This document shows positions 18,003 to 27,651 of a stretch of DNA of 61,918 nucleotides, one piece after another (the first letter of the stretch is position 1; each line of letters begins with the position of its first letter). Made by a program: the position numbers and the translations under genes. The stretch spans positions 1-61,918 of the forward strand of contig LJVD01000004.1 in assembly GCA_001304225.1 (NCBI GenBank), written 5' to 3'. The notes under the pieces are model-generated. The model did not search any database. It had not been told where the DNA came from and was given only the letters and a program-made list of their open reading frames with translations. This DNA is from a candidate division Zixibacteria bacterium SM1_73. Its GTDB lineage: Bacteria > Zixibacteria > MSB-5A5 > SM1-73.

Positions 18003-18115
18003 CGGAAGGTTTCGGCCTTCCATTGTGGAAAATGGAAACTCGCCAAGCTCAGGGTGCTGAGCAAAGTCGAAGCACAAGCTCAGGACAAAAAAGGTTTCCT
18101 CTACATGTCGAACAG
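18003..18115 (+). repeat. double-hairpin repeat (family D) carrying a ~60-nt nested insertion
   Basis: gcggaaggtttcggccttccattgtggaaa [60-nt insert] aggtttcctctacat. Compare the copies at 58574-58630 and 61466-61513. Confidence 0.7.
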
Positions 18116-19827
18116 CCTCGTACCTCAGGTGCCCTGCGCACCTGATATATTAATAGTATCAGGAGCTCGGGGCTCCTGACCCATTTGCCTCCTACGATCG
18201 TGGATTCGATTTTTGTGTCTAATATCTCGTCTGGATTTATCTCAAAGATGTCTTTGGATAAAACCATCATATCTGCCAATTTCCCGGTCTGGATTGATCC
18301 TTTGATTTTCTCCTCATAGGAGGCGTAGCTTGCTCCCTGGGTAAATGCAAAGACGGCTTCTGGAACGCTCAAGCATTCTTGGGGATACCAGGCTCTTCTT
18401 CTTTGGCCTTCTTTTCCCATGGGTCCTGCGGACTTTCGGGTCACTGCCGCATGGATTATTCTTAACGCATCCATGGTCTCGATGGGCAGATCTGAACCAA
18501 AAACGAGCTTGGTTTGATGGTTCAATAAGCTCTTATAGGGATAACGAAAGCCCTCTCTTTTCCCCCAGTATTTATCTACTATGTCCCGATCCGATGGAGC
18601 ATGATATGGCTGAACAGATGCGATCACCCCTGATTTGCTGAACCTTTCCATATCTTGAGGAGAGATCAGTTGGGCATGTTCAACACGATGGCGGAGCTTT
18701 TTGTTTTGTGTTGAGCTTTCAATAGCATTTAGGGCCTGATGGACCGCTCTGTCACCGATGGCATGAATGGCAACACCTATTCCAGCTTGAGATGCTTTTC
18801 TCACCGCTTGGGTTAATTCCTCTTGCGAAGTGACCTGTATGCCAAAGTTATCCTCTGAGTTTTCATACGGCTCAAACATTAAAGCGGTCTGTGAACCCAA
18901 CGCGCCATCACTGTAAAGCTTCAGCCCGCCGAACCGGATATTCTCGTCGCCAAAGCCAGACTGCAACCCTAAACTTATAGCAGAATCCAAATCCTCTTTG
19001 GAAATCCAAAAGCAAACTCTTAAGGAAAGCTCCTCATCCTTCAAAAACTTCTGGAAAAAGAAAACCGCCTTTTGTTCTTCAAGATTATGAATTCCAGTCA
19101 ATCCAAAGCTATTAGCTTTCTTCATCGCCTCCTTGAGGAGCCTTTTGGATTTTTCAGGAGAAGGTGAGGGGACTTTTTCCCATATCAACTCACAAGCCTC
19201 TTCTTTGAGTATCCCTGTTGGCTCGCCACAGGTGGGATGGCGATCTATTTTGCCGCCCTGAGGGTCTTTTTTATATTTGTCAATTCCGGCCAACTTCAAA
19301 GCCAAGGAATTCACCCACAAAAGATGATGATCCTTACTTCTGAGCGCTGCCGGATTCTCAGGACAGATTTTGTCTAAAATTTCTTTAGTAAAATTTCCCT
19401 CCTCTTTTAGAATGTTTTTATCCCACCCTCTGCCTACAAGCCACTCTTTGGGTCTTAATTTTTTGGCAAAGATTTTGATCTGCCATAAAATGTGATCAAA
19501 GGACTTTATCTGATCAAGATTGACTTGATTGAGACTCAATGCGAAAGAGAGAAAATGGGTATGGCAGTCGATGAATCCCGGAACGACTGTTTTTCCTCGA
19601 AGATTTATAACCTTGAAGTTGCTCTTTCCCAGATTTTCAACATCTGAGGTTTTGCCCACGCCTATTATTTTGGAATCCCTCACTGCCACTGCCTCAGCTT
19701 GAGGCTGTTTGGGATTCATGGTGTAAATCTTTCCGTTCAACAACATCAAATCTTTCATATGATTTCTTATGCTTTGATTTCTCTCAAAAGATGGCCGAAA
19801 GCCTTTGCAATAATTCTTGTTTGTCAT
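18049..19827 (-). CDS. amidohydrolase-3 (YtcJ-like) metal-dependent hydrolase
   Basis: VVPGFIDCHTHF and later HAIGD/VEHAQ motifs. The true start is probably the internal MKDLMLLNGKIY. The last ~40 aa are read out of repeat family D. Confidence 0.75.
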   Translation of the reverse strand: MTNKNYCKGFRPSFERNQSIRNHMKDLMLLNGKIYTMNPKQPQAEAVAVRDSKIIGVGKTSDVENLGKSNFKVINLRGKTVVPGFIDCHTHFLSFALSLNQVNLDQIKSFDHILWQIKIFAKKLRPKEWLVGRGWDKNILKEEGNFTKEILDKICPENPAALRSKDHHLLWVNSLALKLAGIDKYKKDPQGGKIDRHPTCGEPTGILKEEACELIWEKVPSPSPEKSKRLLKEAMKKANSFGLTGIHNLEEQKAVFFFQKFLKDEELSLRVCFWISKEDLDSAISLGLQSGFGDENIRFGGLKLYSDGALGSQTALMFEPYENSEDNFGIQVTSQEELTQAVRKASQAGIGVAIHAIGDRAVHQALNAIESSTQNKKLRHRVEHAQLISPQDMERFSKSGVIASVQPYHAPSDRDIVDKYWGKREGFRYPYKSLLNHQTKLVFGSDLPIETMDALRIIHAAVTRKSAGPMGKEGQRRRAWYPQECLSVPEAVFAFTQGASYASYEEKIKGSIQTGKLADMMVLSKDIFEINPDEILDTKIESTIVGGKWVRSPELLILLIYQVRRAPEVRGCSTCRGNLFCPELVLRLCSAP

Positions 19828-20035: not shown

Positions 20036-21907
20036 TCATCTGTTGGAAAGTACTCTTTTATCTCCCTCCCTTTCGGTTACTCCCTGTTGATCCAGTTTTT
20101 CTAAAATGGGAACCATATATTTGCGGGTGGTGGAAACATGTTCCCTCAGTTGACTCACCGTAGCGGGTCCATTCTTGTCGATGAAATCCACGATCTTATT
20201 TTTAATCTTCTCAAAATCTTCTTTTCTGAAAAGCACTCCATCCTTCAATTCGATTAGTTTCCCCCCTTGGATCAAAAACATCAAAACATCTTCATGATTT
20301 GAGCTCTCACCCAAAATTTCCTCTTTGGTGGGTGGAGAAAGCGGATGGACAACAAATTTCTGCAATATTTTTTGAGAGAGATTCTCTTGTTCTGGAGTAA
20401 GTTTGGGCTTATGAGAAGGAAGCCTGAGATAAGCCTCCTGTTGAACTATTCTTCTATCCTTTACCAGGGATCTGATAGCTTCGGTCAAGAGATCCTCTTC
20501 TATTTTCAGTTTCCCGGAAAGCCCTGCAGATTTCACTCCAATTTTGAAGGGAAATTTCTGGTGTGTTTTTTCCACCTCTTTGGTTATTTTTGTTAACACC
20601 TCTTCCCATCTTGATTTATGTATCAGCAGATTTTCGATCAAAAATATTCTCCCTGCTTTTTCCAATTCCGTCAAGCTTGACTCAATTTGGCTCCGGCTGA
20701 AATTGCCTGCTTTTAGGATGTCTCTCCTTAACATGAAATTTTGTCTTTCCAAATCAGAAAGAATTAAATCCGGCAGGTTTAGATTCAGTCTCCTTCCAAG
20801 ATCAGGGACTAACCACTTATCTTTTTTCTTATATACTCTTGGAGAGACATCCAATACGATTCCGCCTCCGATGGTTATCTGTGGCGAAGGCAATCTCAGT
20901 ATAAAATGATCTCCGATTCGAGCTAAGAGATTCTCTTTGCATTTAAACTGCACCAAAGCAGAGCCGCCCGGCTCTATTTTCTCTTTATTTAGAATATTGA
21001 TCCTGGCCAAAAGTTCAGTGGTTCCCAAAATTAGAAGGAGCTGGGCATTATGTTTTATGGGGAATGCCATAGTGGACACTAGGTCAACTTTGGCGGCGAA
21101 AATATCGGTGGTTTCATCCTGAGCCGCTTTGGTGACTACGTCTCCCCTTTGGATATCTACTTTTTCCAGCCCAGCTAAATTCATTGCCACCCTGGTCCCG
21201 GGCAAGGCTTTTTCAAATTTCTTCTTGTGGGTTTGTAAATCTCTTATCCGAGCGGAAATTTTTTGAGGAAGAATTTCTATCTCCTCCCCCAAATGGAAAG
21301 AACCGTCGATCAGGGTGCCGGTGACCACCGTTCCCCTGCCGGCCATGGTGAAGACCCGATCGATATACATTCTCGGTTTTCCGATATCTTTCCGGGGCTG
21401 GATTTCAGAAATCATCTTGGCTATTTCGTCATAAAGCTTTTTTATTCCAATCTTATTGGGGGAGGAAACTTCGAGTATGGGGGCACCTTCCAGAATAGTC
21501 CCTCTTACCTTTTCCTTGATATCTTCTTCTACTAAGCTCAGCCAATCTTCTTTAACCAGGTCTATTTTGGTTATCACCACGATTCCTCTTTTTATCTTTA
21601 AAAAATCCAGGATTTGTAAATGTTCTTGGCTCTGGGGCATCCAGCCATCATCCGCTGCCACCACAAATAAGACCGCATCGATTCCCCCCACCCCAGCCAC
21701 CATATTCTTCACAAATCTCTCATGACCGGGAACGTCTACGATTCCCACCTCTGATCCGTCCGGAAGAGAAAGCCAGGCAAAACCTAAATCGATGGTCATG
21801 CCCCTTCTTTTCTCCTCCGGAAGCCTATCCGGATCGATGCCGGTTAAGGCTTCCACCAACTTGGACTTTCCATGATCTATATGTCCGGCAGTTCCTATGA
21901 CAAACAT
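20036..21907 (-). CDS. selB: selenocysteine-specific elongation factor
   Basis: GTPase motifs GHIDHGKS, DVPGHE and TKID, plus a long winged-helix C-terminal region. It is adjacent to selA. Confidence 0.9.
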   Translation of the reverse strand: MFVIGTAGHIDHGKSKLVEALTGIDPDRLPEEKRRGMTIDLGFAWLSLPDGSEVGIVDVPGHERFVKNMVAGVGGIDAVLFVVAADDGWMPQSQEHLQILDFLKIKRGIVVITKIDLVKEDWLSLVEEDIKEKVRGTILEGAPILEVSSPNKIGIKKLYDEIAKMISEIQPRKDIGKPRMYIDRVFTMAGRGTVVTGTLIDGSFHLGEEIEILPQKISARIRDLQTHKKKFEKALPGTRVAMNLAGLEKVDIQRGDVVTKAAQDETTDIFAAKVDLVSTMAFPIKHNAQLLLILGTTELLARINILNKEKIEPGGSALVQFKCKENLLARIGDHFILRLPSPQITIGGGIVLDVSPRVYKKKDKWLVPDLGRRLNLNLPDLILSDLERQNFMLRRDILKAGNFSRSQIESSLTELEKAGRIFLIENLLIHKSRWEEVLTKITKEVEKTHQKFPFKIGVKSAGLSGKLKIEEDLLTEAIRSLVKDRRIVQQEAYLRLPSHKPKLTPEQENLSQKILQKFVVHPLSPPTKEEILGESSNHEDVLMFLIQGGKLIELKDGVLFRKEDFEKIKNKIVDFIDKNGPATVSQLREHVSTTRKYMVPILEKLDQQGVTEREGDKRVLSNR

Positions 21908-22014: not shown

Positions 22015-23442
22015 TCAACTTTTTTTGGGAAAAATGTTCTTTATCGCCTTTATGATCAGATCATCCTGATGAGGGAAAATGGTTCTTAAATCCAACACGA
22101 ATTTCTCATCCTCTATGCGGCCAATTATGGGTGGAGATTGTTCTCTGAAAAGCTGGGCTAACTGATCAGCGGTATGAACCGCATGGTTCATACCAGCGGA
22201 TTCAGTAGATTCAACAGATATTGCCACTGTTGGCAAGGTTTCACCTGGAAGGGAGCCTCCTCCCACCGTGCTTTTGCTCTCTTTTATGGTGATTGAAATT
22301 CCTGATTTGTGTAACTCTTCTTTGATATTCTCCGCCCTTTTTCTCAAAACATCCAAAGGAGCGCTGATCATTTGCCAGGCAGGAATCTTTTTAGTTGCCT
22401 GGCCCTTGAGATAAGAAAGCAAAACGCTTTCCAGGCCGGCAATGAACATTTTATCCAATCTTAGGGCGCGGTGAAGAGGGTGTTTTCTTAACAGATCAAT
22501 ATATTTCTTCCTCCCCAAAATTATTCCGGCTTGAGGTGCACCCAAGAGCTTATCCCCTGAAAAACAGACCAGGTCTGCTCCAGCGGAAATAGCCTCCAGT
22601 GCCGTGGGCTCGTGCGCCAGTTCAAAATCCTCGGTCCTGAGCATGACTCCGCTTCCCAGATCCTCTGCCGCACAAAGATTGTGCTTCCTTCCTAAATTCA
22701 CTAATTCACTTATAGGCGGTCTCTCTACAAATCCGATCATTCTGAAATTGCTCTGATGGACTTTGAGCAGAAGGGCGGTATCCTGAGTTATGGCGTTCTC
22801 ATAATCGGAAAGGGTGGTCTTGTTGGTGGTTCCCACTTCTTTTAAAATTGCTCCGCTCAAAGCTAAAATCTCAGGGATGCGAAAGCCACCGCCTATCTGC
22901 ACCAACTCGCCTCTTGAGACGATAACCTCTTTTCCTTCTGCTAAAGCGGTCAGAATCAAAAGAACTGCCCCGGCGTTGTTATTTACTGCTAAGGCAGCCT
23001 CGGCTTGAGTCAACTGGCACAAAAGCTTTTGTAAAAAAATTCCTCTATGGCTTCTTTTTCCCGCTTTGAGATCAAATTCCAAATTATTATAATTCTTGCT
23101 GATCTCTACTATGTGGGACAATGACTCTTCATCCAAGGGTGCGCGTCCCAGATTGGTGTGCAGGATCACCCCGGTGGCATTGATCACCGGTCGGACTAAA
23201 TCCGTAGTCTTTTCTTCAACAGCTTGGCTAACTTTTTCGACTATTTGATCAAAGGAAATATCTTGTGGAACTTCTTTGATCTGTTCTCTTATGGAGGAAA
23301 GCATCTCTTTTGCTGTTTGGCTTACCAGAGGATGGGAATATTTTTCGATTTTCTCTTTTAGCTTTTCCGATTCTAAGATTTTTTCGACGCTAGGAAGCTG
23401 TCTTAACTTCTCCTTGATCAGCTTTTCACTTGGATTTTGCAT
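22015..23442 (-). CDS. selA: L-seryl-tRNA(Sec) selenium transferase
   Basis: PLP-lysine context FSGDKLLGAPQAGII and an N-terminal LPSVEKIL motif. Confidence 0.9.
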   Translation of the reverse strand: MQNPSEKLIKEKLRQLPSVEKILESEKLKEKIEKYSHPLVSQTAKEMLSSIREQIKEVPQDISFDQIVEKVSQAVEEKTTDLVRPVINATGVILHTNLGRAPLDEESLSHIVEISKNYNNLEFDLKAGKRSHRGIFLQKLLCQLTQAEAALAVNNNAGAVLLILTALAEGKEVIVSRGELVQIGGGFRIPEILALSGAILKEVGTTNKTTLSDYENAITQDTALLLKVHQSNFRMIGFVERPPISELVNLGRKHNLCAAEDLGSGVMLRTEDFELAHEPTALEAISAGADLVCFSGDKLLGAPQAGIILGRKKYIDLLRKHPLHRALRLDKMFIAGLESVLLSYLKGQATKKIPAWQMISAPLDVLRKRAENIKEELHKSGISITIKESKSTVGGGSLPGETLPTVAISVESTESAGMNHAVHTADQLAQLFREQSPPIIGRIEDEKFVLDLRTIFPHQDDLIIKAIKNIFPKKS

Positions 23443-24467
23443 CTTTTGTCCTCGACTATATCGCCAATGACCACAGAGTTGGGCACGCCTTTGGAAATAA
23501 GACGACCCAGAAGCTTCTGCTCCTTTTCTTTTGCCACCGCGATCAACAGTCCCCCGGAGGTTTGCGCATCGGATAGGATCAATTTTGCTTCCTCAGAGAT
23601 ATCCCGATCCCAATCTGCTTTATCCTGAATAAACTTAAGATTTGCCAAAGTACCACCTGGGACCACCCTCTGTTTTGCCAGTTCCCAAGCATAGTCTATC
23701 ACGGGAACCTTGGATAAAAAGACTCTTGCTCCAACATTTGAAGCCTGCACCAACTCCCACAGATGTCCCAAAAGCCCGTAACCTGTGATATCCGTACAAG
23801 CATTGATCCCCACATCCAGCATTGCCTCTGAGGCAAATTTATTTAGAAAAATCATTATCTTCACCGCTTCGGCTACCCACTTCTCCTCGACCTGCTCTTT
23901 TTTAATAGCCGTGGTTATGAGCCCAATCCCTAACGGCTTGGTCAACACCAAAGAATCTCCAACTTTGGCCTTGGCATTACTTATTATCTTATCTGGATGA
24001 ATTGTTCCGGTTACTGCCAGTCCATATAGCGGCTCTTTGGTTTTGAGAGTATGACCGCCTATTATAGCCACATCCGCCTCTTGGGTTTTGTCTGCGCCTC
24101 CCCTTAGGATTTCATCCACGGCCCATAAAGGAACGGACTTTGGAGGAAAACCAAGAAGATTAAGTGCAGATAAAGGTTTTCCTCCCATGGCGTAGATATC
24201 GCTTAAGGCATTAGCCGCCGCTATTCTCCCGAAATCATAAGGATCATCCACCACCGGCGGAAAGAAATCCACGGTTTGCACCAGAGCTAGATCTTCTCTT
24301 ATCTTGTAAACCCCGGCATCATCCACCGAGTTGAACCCAACCAACACATTCGGGTTTTTCATTTTGGGCAAATGACTCAGAACCTGAGTCAGGTCATCAG
24401 GACCACACTTTGACGCTCACCCAAAACTCGATGCCAAACGGGTCAATCTAATTTTTTGTTCACTCAT
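23418..24467 (-). CDS. selD: selenide, water dikinase containing selenocysteine (in-frame TGA at 24419-24417)
   Basis: The ORF track starts at 24371. The same frame is open upstream to the ATG at 24467, giving MSEQKIRLTRLASSFG-U-ASKCGPDDLTQVLSHLP. G-U-A-S-K aligns with the G-C-G-C-K active-site loop of E. coli SelD (Cys17/Lys20). Confidence 0.8.
24373..24391 (-). promoter_or_regulatory. SECIS-like hairpin for the selD UGA
   Basis: On the mRNA, tgactcag-GUU-ctgagtca is a perfect 8-bp stem. It starts 25 nt after the UGA, and the loop begins with G-U. Confidence 0.5.
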
Positions 24468-24530
24468 TTGATCTATTTCTTTTCCCGTTAGTGAATTTCA
24501 AAGGACAAATCGTTCCATTACTTGCTTTCC

Positions 24531-25499
24531 TCATTGACACTCGTCTCTTACAAACTTTCTCGTGGCACGAGTCGCCATAGCTCGACCAAAACTGAATGGA
24601 GTGGTACTCAAAAATTTATGAACCTGAATTATTCCGTAGTCCTCCAAATAACTAACTGCTCTGTTAATTCTACTTGGGGGTAATTTGGTGATTTCCTGAA
24701 TCTCTTGACCACTCAGTTCTTTTCTTGCCTCTATAGCAGAAACAATAATTTTAATGTCATTTTCGGGGTCATAACGTGTGCCTACCCCTCTGAAATGCAA
24801 ATATAAGGCGTAGGTTGGTTCGACTTGTGCGTAAGCAAAGGGTTGTGTTCCCAAAAATCGTAACGATTTTACCAGACCATGGGACTCAAGTTCTTCTATA
24901 GCATCATTTATTTCTTGGGGCGTAAACTCAAGAAGTTCGGACAGTTCCTTCACGTCATACCTTTTTCCAAACGGGCGACTATCGTCATTGTCCTTAACCA
25001 TGAATTCCCCTAATTTGGTAGCTTCAGGTGAGAGGCCTCCAATAGTCTCAGTTCGCGTAGCAACAAAGTCTGGGGGAACCCCTAATGTCGGCTTTTCTCT
25101 TATTTCAAAGATGCTTTTTAACAACTCTCGTGCCTTATTCTCAAAATCTGAAGACATATCGATCCATCTAAGGGGTTTTACAGCACTCGGTATATCACAT
25201 TGCTCTATAATAATCGGTATTATCTTCGTAATGCCCTGAATCTTCTTGATCATAGCAACATCAAGTTCATTTTGAACCCAATTTGACTTAACACTGCTCT
25301 TCGATAACAGTATCAAAAAGACGTCACAATTCCTCAGTCCTTCCTCAAATATTTTCTCGATTAAAGAATCTCCCGGCAATATTTCCCATTTATCCCACCA
25401 GGCATCGACGCCGTTTTCCCGAAGAATAGTTGCAATTTTCTCTGCGAAGCTTTTATCCGAATGGCTATAACTTATAAAGACTCGCGGTGCTTCGTCCAC
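24531..25499 (-). CDS. TIR-domain protein with two tandem wHTH-like C-terminal units
   Basis: TIR hallmarks VFISYSHSD and SKSSVKSNWVQNELDVA (candidate catalytic Glu). Internal C-terminal duplication: ELSELLEFTPQEINDAIEELESHGLVKSLRFLGTQPF and ELSGQEIQEITKLPPSRINRAVSYLEDYGIIQVHKFLSTTPF. GTG start 4 nt after AGGAGG. Confidence 0.8.
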   Translation of the reverse strand: MDEAPRVFISYSHSDKSFAEKIATILRENGVDAWWDKWEILPGDSLIEKIFEEGLRNCDVFLILLSKSSVKSNWVQNELDVAMIKKIQGITKIIPIIIEQCDIPSAVKPLRWIDMSSDFENKARELLKSIFEIREKPTLGVPPDFVATRTETIGGLSPEATKLGEFMVKDNDDSRPFGKRYDVKELSELLEFTPQEINDAIEELESHGLVKSLRFLGTQPFAYAQVEPTYALYLHFRGVGTRYDPENDIKIIVSAIEARKELSGQEIQEITKLPPSRINRAVSYLEDYGIIQVHKFLSTTPFSFGRAMATRATRKFVRDECQ

Positions 25500-25507
25500 T
25501 TCTCCTC

Positions 25508-26095
25508 CTATCTTTCACTAAACCACCGTTCAATATTCTCTTTCTTGATGATTGGGCGAACTGTTAAGGAAGTAATTCCAATTATTCCGCCCTGTAAGTC
25601 TCTTTTCTGACCCGGCGAAAACCAAATTGGTTTTGCTTGAACCGTACGGTCATCTTTTATGTGAACTACTTCAACAATAGCAATGCAGACTTCTACGTCC
25701 GCTAAATTTCGATATACCTCAAATAACGAACCAATTTCAGTGTTGTAATTACCCACAAAAAGAAAAATGTGATCTCCGCCAAAATCATCACAGCGTTGAA
25801 TACTTCTTAAAGTTATTTTCGAATATGAATTCTTGAATAGTCTGTATCCTTGATATGTAGCTGAAATTGTCAAGAACATAAGAGCAAAGAAGAACAAGAT
25901 TAGGAAGCAGATCCAGATACGGGTCAATATGTATACCGATGCCGGAAAAAGAAACCAGCCTCCAACGGTGGCGACTCCGGTGATAGTTGCCCACCACCAC
26001 CTAAAGAATGGGCCAAACATGATTCCTAAAAAGGTTGCATTTCTATTCATCTTTATCTCTCTGTCCCTGCGCAGTACCATCATCAAACAAGGCAA
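25508..26095 (-). CDS. small 2TM membrane protein with ~115-aa soluble C-terminal domain (unknown family)
   Basis: Hydrophobic helices FFRWWWATITGVATVGGWFLFPASVYIL and IWICFLILFFFALMFLTISATY. The stop codon lies 8 nt before the TIR start. An alternative start is the ATG at 26050 (MNRNATF). Confidence 0.6.
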   Translation of the reverse strand: MPCLMMVLRRDREIKMNRNATFLGIMFGPFFRWWWATITGVATVGGWFLFPASVYILTRIWICFLILFFFALMFLTISATYQGYRLFKNSYSKITLRSIQRCDDFGGDHIFLFVGNYNTEIGSLFEVYRNLADVEVCIAIVEVVHIKDDRTVQAKPIWFSPGQKRDLQGGIIGITSLTVRPIIKKENIERWFSER

Positions 26096-26678: not shown

Positions 26679-27500
26679 TTATATATCGATTACCATTCCC
26701 ACTCCATTTGCGATGAAATCCTCCTTATATTCTTCTTTAAACAATTCTCTGGTTTTATCTCCAGAGCAATGGCAAGGGGCCGCCTTTTTCACGCCCAGTT
26801 CCCTGAAGCTTTTTATTATCTCTCTTAATTTAGAATCACCAACTCCTCCTAAGTGAAAGCCACCCAGAACCAAATAGATCTCCTCGGTGGTTATCTTTTT
26901 AGCTTCTCTTAACATCTCCACAATCCCGGGATGGGCACAGCCGGTTATCACCACCAGCCCCTTTTCTGTTTTCACGATTAAAGCTTGTTCTTTAATCCAG
27001 GTGCCCAGCTCTCCGGTGGTGCTCACGCTTTCAGATATCTTTACTGGACCGGCAACCTCAACCACATTTGCCTTGTATGATTTTACTTTGTTTTTAAAAT
27101 CATCGGGAAATGAACTCAATAAACAAACGTCGAGATTTGAGTTAATCTCCAATATCCCCGAAAGTCCACCGGTATGATCTCCGTGAATATGGGACAGCAC
27201 GATTGTATTTATGGTTTTTGGATCTATACCCAATTTCTGCATATTATAAAGCAAGGTTGAGCTCTCTCCGCCGGTATCAAAAAGAATATTTTTATCTCCC
27301 ACTTTAACCAGACAGGAGAACCCCCATCCTGTCTTCAATTCGGGATCATGCTCGTAATTATCATAAACGGTAATTAAAGTGATTTTTGCTTGAGTTGATT
27401 CCATTTTAACTTTCTCCATCCTTTCTGTTTTTCTGCAACTGAAAAATGAAATTAACAAAAGTATTACGAGGAAGGGTATAAATGGGAATAACTTTTTCAT
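26679..27500 (-). CDS. MBL-fold metallohydrolase lipoprotein
   Basis: SHIHGDHTGGL motif. Signal peptide plus lipobox (ISFFSC) from the ATG at 27500. The ORF-track extension to 27647 is translation through the tRNA gene. Confidence 0.75.
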   Translation of the reverse strand: MKKLFPFIPFLVILLLISFFSCRKTERMEKVKMESTQAKITLITVYDNYEHDPELKTGWGFSCLVKVGDKNILFDTGGESSTLLYNMQKLGIDPKTINTIVLSHIHGDHTGGLSGILEINSNLDVCLLSSFPDDFKNKVKSYKANVVEVAGPVKISESVSTTGELGTWIKEQALIVKTEKGLVVITGCAHPGIVEMLREAKKITTEEIYLVLGGFHLGGVGDSKLREIIKSFRELGVKKAAPCHCSGDKTRELFKEEYKEDFIANGVGMVIDI

Positions 27501-27556
27501 AATACCTTCAAACTGATTAACGAGATCACTTGACCATGTGCTAAAATTAAAATAAG

Positions 27557-27651
27557 CGGAAGGGGTGGGAATCGAACCCACCTCCCCCCGGACCAACCGA
27601 GGGGACCACGGATTTGAAGTCCGCAAGGACCACCAGATCCTATCCACTACA
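27557..27651 (-). tRNA. selC: tRNA-Sec-like gene (anticodon TCA); acceptor stem not resolved
   Basis: Anticodon loop CUUCAAA, with UCA at 27617-27615. The D arm is a 6-bp stem with a 4-nt loop (AGGAUC-UGGU-GGUCCU). The variable arm is a 9-bp stem (UCCCCUCGG-UUGGU-CCGGGGGGA). The T arm is GUGGG-UUCGAUU-CCCAC. The 3' strand CCCUUCC-G lacks a clean 5' partner; the observed 5' strand is UGUAGUGG. Confidence 0.6.

Follow-up and report, generated by a model that had tools for sequence, protein, structure and literature searches.

A probable selenocysteine-type selenophosphate synthetase, truncated in public gene calls, in a candidate division Zixibacteria bacterium

The stretch of DNA analyzed here, 61,918 nucleotides (nt) of contig LJVD01000004.1 from candidate division Zixibacteria bacterium SM1_73 (assembly GCA_001304225.1; the whole stretch is called the window), encodes on its minus strand a selD gene (23418-24467) interrupted by one in-frame TGA. 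We consider it very probable that this gene encodes a selenocysteine (Sec)-type selenophosphate synthetase (selenide, water dikinase) whose mRNA carries a functional selenocysteine insertion sequence (SECIS). The basis is homology, including a match to SelD profiles, a Sec/Cys pair at the interrupted codon, conservation of the TGA, covariation in a hairpin that follows it, and the presence of selA, selB and selC; the same evidence upholds the initial annotation of the window, which had read selD as a selenoprotein. Insertion of Sec at UGA-17, binding of SelB to the hairpin and catalysis are predicted from these data. Sec-type SelD is a well-known enzyme, and what is new here is its occurrence in a little-studied phylum together with a correction of the public annotation.

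The selD frame, its catalytic loop and its truncation in databases

The selD frame opens with the ATG at 24467-24465, meets a single TGA at 24419-24417 (codon 17) and closes with the TGA at 23420-23418. When the internal TGA is read as U, the product has 349 amino acids (aa); its N-terminal peptide is MSEQKIRLTRLASSFG-U-ASKCGP, and after the TGA the frame continues as ASKCGPDDLTQVLSHLPKMKNPNVLVGF. Translation of the minus strand gave exactly the frame, coordinates and peptide that had been proposed initially. No other start codon separates the preceding stop from the conserved KIRLT motif, and the position of this ATG is common to the orthologues (M-D/S-x-x-x-KIRLT) and to Escherichia coli SelD (MSENSIRLT).

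The read-through protein is recognized as SelD over its full length. It scores 379.2 bits against NCBIfam TIGR00476 (cutoff 125) and 350.9 bits against NF002098 (cutoff 299), and since the latter match covers residues 1-347, the SelD profile itself takes in the disputed N-terminal extension, which thus resembles a SelD N-terminus from its first residue. A phmmer search of the PDB aligned the protein end to end with E. coli SelD (3u0o, E = 2e-73, residues 1-340), residue 1 falling on residue 1, and with Aquifex aeolicus SelD (2yye, E = 6e-74), in which the same N-terminal loop is aligned. Residues 1-26 of the extended protein align with the E. coli enzyme, the query reading MSEQKIRLTRLASSFGcASKcGP, and within residues 14-20 SFG-U-ASK lies on GAG-C-GCK. 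U17 therefore corresponds to Cys17 and K20 to Lys20, as the initial annotation had proposed for the G-U-A-S-K segment, and the loop matches both the Sec-type and the Cys-type structure. Cys17 and Lys20 are known to be needed for the activity of E. coli SelD, and A. aeolicus SelD is a natural selenoprotein at the corresponding site, both being established knowledge. The Pfam domains PF00586 and PF02769 (AIR-synthase-related N- and C-terminal domains) are precomputed for an identical 317-aa call and for all close relatives.

A six-frame search of 40 related genomes, ranging from the same genus to the same class, found in most of them a close SelD orthologue with exactly one internal TGA. The N-terminal region was read in 31 orthologues (45-83% identity) spanning the same ranks of candidate division Zixibacteria, and all 31 have TGA at codon 17. 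All of them also keep the 16 upstream codons as protein, with the consensus M-x3-4-KIRLT-x-LA-x-S-x-G-U-A-x-K, and none starts downstream without the N-terminal loop. Conservation of both the upstream peptide and the TGA indicates that the upstream stretch is coding and excludes both an assembly error and a decaying stop as explanations for the TGA. Four homologues that have no internal stop and whose loop reads G-C-A-C/A-K have TGT at the aligned position; three of these are oxidoreductase-SelD fusions of about 740 aa, and the fourth is an unfused SelD homologue (376-aa open frame). On sequence grounds, the TGA and TGT at this position form a classical Sec/Cys pair.

In the Cys-type fusions, SelD makes up the C-terminal half of the stop-free frame and is 48-54% identical to the SelD described here. 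They share its loop, in the form G-C-A-C-K, but differ from it in their N-terminal oxidoreductase domain, in the TGT codon and in having no conserved in-register hairpin. Such fusions were seen at loci G009:C213, G036:C3 and G002:C1 (L033, L035 and L036) and in about 15 other relatives, and in many relatives the Cys-type fusion stands alongside a Sec-type SelD. No such fusion was found in the source assembly, which is 77% complete.

Standard gene calling does not recover this protein. Under genetic code table 11, the open reading frame (ORF) finder gives only a 317-aa ORF (23418-24371) starting with the TTG at 24371, just 3' of the hairpin, and so misses the N-terminus, as had been suspected. 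A caller using table 11 would stop at codon 17 and restart at the downstream TTG, yielding a 317-aa product without the catalytic loop. The 120 best matches in a collection of 5.8 billion proteins are all 302-324 aa long, among them the closest named relative, an NCBI record from candidate division Zixibacteria bacterium SM23_73 (89% identity), and the truncation of selD in public gene calls is therefore systematic. These calls lack the catalytic N-terminal loop, and the public annotation of selD is wrong. The main value of the present analysis is this correction, as metabolic reconstructions and structure predictions based on the truncated calls start without the active-site residue.

The hairpin downstream of the UGA codon

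The initial annotation had described a perfect 8-base-pair (bp) hairpin with loop GUU, beginning 25 nt after the UGA, and this structure is found both in the letters and in the minimum free energy and centroid folds (24373-24391, minus strand). The 5' arm UGACUCAG occupies 24391-24384, the loop GUU 24383-24381 and the 3' arm CUGAGUCA 24380-24373; all eight pairs are Watson-Crick, and the stem lies inside the codons for L-T-Q-V-L-S-H. A spacer of 25 nt (24416-24392) separates the stem from the UGA, and the loop begins 33 nt after the UGA, inside the bSECISearch range of 16-37 nt from UGA to loop. A 76-nt region folds at -23.0 kcal/mol, compared with -16.1 +/- 2.8 for dinucleotide shuffles (z = -2.43). 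In the whole source genome, on both strands, 231 of 84,927 TGA trinucleotides (0.27%) are followed by a qualifying hairpin, defined as a perfect Watson-Crick stem of at least 8 bp with a loop of 3-8 nt and G in the first two loop bases, starting 16-37 nt downstream.

Compensatory substitutions indicate that the helix itself is maintained. Over 75 nt around the UGA, 29 orthologues could be aligned without gaps; the 8-bp helix has a standard pair in 95.7% of the base-pair cells, and four of the eight pairs show changes on both sides. Alignment columns 45 and 55 are C-G in 12 orthologues, G-C in 12 and U-A in five. Covariation links the wobble base of a Thr codon (ACU, ACC or ACG, all synonymous) to the first base of a codon that lies ten bases further on and reads AGU (Ser), GGU (Gly) or CGU (Arg), and because a synonymous change is thereby matched by a nonsynonymous one, base pairing outranks the identity of the amino acid. 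When the 3' partners were slid by 1-3 columns, only 29-42% of cells were paired and the covariation score fell from 0.376 to 0.09 or less. The SECIS-like hairpin of the initial annotation is thus a conserved feature of these genes. The apical loop is GUU or GUG in 28 of the 29 orthologues and GAGUU in the remaining one (L027). These loops agree with the conserved G noted for the apical loop of bacterial SECIS elements (PMC1794560).

Several observations weigh against this reading of the hairpin or limit the evidence for it. None of 500 shuffles reached the observed pairing or covariation score, but shuffling ignores the kinship among the sequences, and the slid control is for that reason the more honest of the two. 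The upper part of the stem, CAG-GUN-CUG, coincides with the codons of a conserved Q-V-L tripeptide, and protein constraint could explain part of its conservation. In the distant Sec-type orthologues L031 and L032 the hairpin is not in the same register, and L032 has a different 7-bp hairpin nearby. An Rfam search of the window at gathering thresholds returned no SECIS family, only the tRNA-Sec, and a search of 24300-24480 at E up to 10 gave chance-level matches only (E >= 0.13, to unrelated snoRNA and lncRNA models). Because Rfam has no model that recognizes the hairpin, the SECIS call draws exclusively on structure, position and covariation. The source assembly is of the fragmented, metagenome type, with 147 contigs, and its 77% completeness makes statements on absent genes weak.

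The Cys-type paralogues served as a negative control, and three of the four have no stem longer than 5 bp in the hairpin region. The fourth, the fusion L036, has about 40 nt after its TGT codon an unrelated 12-bp hairpin, GGAGGAGAUAUU-GGCUAA-GAUGUCUCCUCC, that could be a chance occurrence, a remnant or an independent structure. As this hairpin was seen in only one of the four, the control is good but imperfect.

Between the UGA and the stem, RNAfold places a small 4-bp hairpin, GGUC-CUGAU-GACC (24392-24404, minus strand), a weak candidate for an accessory structure. Its cells are paired in 82.8% of cases across the orthologues, and three of its four pairs show some double change, in few sequences; it sits on the conserved codons for G-P-x-D-L, and coding constraint may therefore explain its pairing. 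The three-helix fold from RNAfold, with an outer helix enclosing the UGA, is not claimed here, as the outer helix is only 69.6% paired over the 29 orthologues and many of its cells are unpaired.

Alternative readings and the expected course of decoding

The TGA could be a genuine stop, in which case the functional gene would be the 317-aa ORF from the TTG at 24371, or selD would be a decaying pseudogene. The annotated length of all 120 best database relatives and the outcome of table 11 calling would both agree with a genuine stop, but uniform truncation is precisely the artefact expected of table 11. In 31 genomes the 16 codons upstream of the TGA are conserved at the protein level, with a match to the SelD N-terminus, and the 317-aa product would lack the loop with Cys/Sec17 and Lys20 that established knowledge holds to be essential in E. 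coli SelD. A pseudogene would not retain one TGA at one codon throughout a whole class. We therefore regard termination at codon 17 as very improbable. An error of assembly or sequencing, with a codon that is really TGT or TGC for Cys, might be suspected of so fragmented an assembly; however, 31 independent assemblies agree on this TGA, the hairpin after it covaries, and we find such an error scarcely conceivable.

It is also formally conceivable that an amino acid other than Sec is inserted at the UGA, either because UGA is reassigned genome-wide (to Trp or Gly, as in codes 4 or 25) or through near-cognate read-through with Cys or Trp. Such reassignments exist in some uncultivated bacterial lineages, but selD itself terminates at TGA, which therefore still serves as an ordinary stop codon here and is recoded according to context. 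A genome-wide scan (described below) gave few plausible in-frame TGAs, and all of these occupy redox sites equivalent to Cys. Near selD the genome encodes selA, selB and a dedicated tRNA-Sec, and the codon aligns with Cys in the homologues rather than with Trp or Gly. Decoding other than as Sec is accordingly a very unlikely explanation.

Taking the mechanism from the established bacterial Sec pathway, we infer the following course for the Sec-type SelD. Translation would begin at the ATG at 24467, and as the ribosome approaches codon 17, the hairpin at 24391-24373, with its GUU loop, would recruit SelB-GTP-Sec-tRNA(Sec) to the UGA, SelB binding the apical part of the hairpin. SelB would then insert Sec at UGA-17 in competition with termination by release factor 2. 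The product would have a glycine-rich, mobile N-terminal loop, G-U-A-S-K, in which U17 and K20 would play the roles of the catalytic Cys17 and Lys20 of E. coli. It would make selenophosphate from selenide and ATP, and with this selenophosphate SelA would turn Ser-tRNA(Sec) into Sec-tRNA(Sec). The terminal TGA of selD, which is followed by no such hairpin, would work as a stop. Because selenophosphate is needed for the Sec-tRNA(Sec) that SelD itself requires, SelD would depend on its own product, a self-dependence of Sec-type SelD that has long been recognized.

Two elaborations of this scheme, alone or together, seem to us unlikely. The SECIS hairpin might be the core of a larger structure comprising the 24392-24404 hairpin and an outer helix (24417-24427 with 24361-24371), which, if real, would mask the UGA and adjust Sec insertion to the supply of SelB or selenium; the indications are faint, and the incomplete pairing of the outer helix across the orthologues weakens them further. 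The Sec-type SelD might instead rely on a Cys-type fusion paralogue, which would prime selenophosphate synthesis and so address the bootstrapping problem of SelD. The case for such a dependence is likewise faint, the paralogue being absent from the incomplete source assembly.

In its general features the Zixibacteria SelD resembles the Sec-type enzymes of A. aeolicus (2yye/2zod), Haemophilus influenzae, Deltaproteobacteria and Clostridia. It belongs to the same family (TIGR00476), and its Sec precedes the catalytic Lys by three residues in the glycine-rich N-terminal loop; the gene is linked to selA and selB, and its coding sequence contains, after the UGA, a SelB-type hairpin with G in the apical loop. 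It differs from these named examples in its host and in the very small 3-nt loop (GUU/GUG), encoded by Q-V-L. The Cys-type SelD of E. coli (3u0o) shares the start (MSE..IRLT), the loop register and Lys20, and its residue 17 is likewise the catalytic position; however, its Cys17 is specified by a Cys codon and there is no SECIS, whereas the Zixibacteria enzyme has UGA/Sec at 17. Compared with the SECIS elements of E. coli fdhF and Moorella thermoacetica, the Zixibacteria hairpin shows no evident bulged U, and its loop has 3 nt, or 5 nt (GGUUC) with the closing G-C pair open. Its 25-nt spacer is longer than that of fdhF, in which roughly 11 nt lead to the minimal SECIS element.

A Sec-type SelD is nothing out of the ordinary; the family is a common one. 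Sec-type SelD is among the two most abundant bacterial selenoprotein families (PMC1794560), and in a survey of 5,200 genomes, 383 organisms had SelD as a selenoprotein, a number exceeded only by that for FdhA (PMC5029168, Table 3). Both the linked selA and selB genes and the presence of HdrA in the selenoproteome fit the family; this is textbook biology and no surprise to a specialist. A literature search combining Zixibacteria and selenocysteine found no paper on their SelD or selenoproteins, the terms co-occurring only incidentally. Sec decoding emerges as a conserved trait across this order of Zixibacteria, with a selenoproteome probably comprising at least SelD and two HdrA-like enzymes. 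This is relevant to interpreting the selenium dependence of these sediment bacteria and leaves selenocysteine biology itself unchanged.

Selenocysteine machinery, further candidates and neighboring genes

All four genes for Sec synthesis and decoding, selA, selB, selC and selD, were identified in the window with NCBIfam, ARAGORN and Rfam. The selA gene for L-seryl-tRNA(Sec) selenium transferase (22015-23442; TIGR00474 at 580 bits, cutoff 268) and then the selB gene for the Sec-specific elongation factor (20036-21907; TIGR00475 at 361.5 bits, cutoff 242) lie directly downstream of selD on the same strand, in an operon-like array. The selA ATG (23442) is in another frame and precedes the selD stop by 25 nt, so that the two genes overlap at 23418-23442, which suggests translational coupling. 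The selC gene for tRNA-Sec, with anticodon UCA (TCA in DNA), is also on the minus strand (27556-27651; detected by ARAGORN and matching Rfam RF01852 with 62.9 bits, gathering score 47). It had been described as adjacent to selD together with selA and selB; the two protein genes do adjoin it, but the tRNA lies about 3.1 kb upstream, separated by three unrelated genes, one for a TIR-domain/winged-helix protein, a small one and one for an MBL-fold hydrolase.

The genome-wide scan was a heuristic search for read-through ORFs with a TGA and a downstream hairpin. Its 201 candidates were mostly false (secreted repeat proteins and out-of-frame junk), and no more than three were credible: SelD, one HdrA-like gene and a protein of the thioredoxin-like/TPR kind. 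The HdrA-like gene (contig C91, 14465-15064, minus strand) encodes a flavoprotein/Fe-S protein of 1025 aa (open frame of 1030 aa) with one TGA, in the motif DCAI-U-ILGP. A second HdrA-like paralogue with an open frame of 833 aa (contig C91, 4385-4978, minus strand) has one TGA in the same motif, and the TGA of both genes is kept in 10 of the 12 relatives searched. The larger gene has the downstream hairpin GGAUGCC-GGUC-GGCAUCC, with loop GGUC. Both genes probably encode selenoproteins and are likewise split by table 11 calling, and since both carry conserved in-frame TGAs, the Sec machinery has clients other than SelD. The third gene (contig C77, TGA at offset 24560, plus strand) encodes a 284-aa protein with a signal-peptide-like N-terminus, a thioredoxin fold and TPR units; its TGA forms the motif U-K-W-C at a CxxC-equivalent site and is followed by a 10-bp hairpin with loop GGA. 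We regard it as a candidate selenoprotein.

No tRNA 2-selenouridine synthase (TIGR03167) was found in the source genome, 77% complete as it is, a hint at most that SelD serves the Sec trait only. Just downstream of selB, the 18049-19827 interval (minus strand) encodes a 592-aa protein of the amidohydrolase superfamily with weak N-terminal matches only; one of these, at 30 bits and far below the cutoff, is to the model "putative selenium metabolism protein SsnA," and a tie to selenium metabolism is conjectural.

Three further genes lie on the minus strand upstream of selD. The TIR-domain protein (24531-25499) has C-terminal winged-helix/helix-turn-helix units and NCBIfam matches to the TIR regions of retron-TIR and Thoeris ThcB4. 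Beside it is a 195-aa ORF (25508-26095) with no family match. The ORF of the MBL-fold hydrolase, as listed (322 aa, 26679-27647), overlaps the tRNA-Sec, which is located immediately upstream of the gene; the family matches of the hydrolase begin at or after residue 71, and its true start is therefore further downstream than listed.

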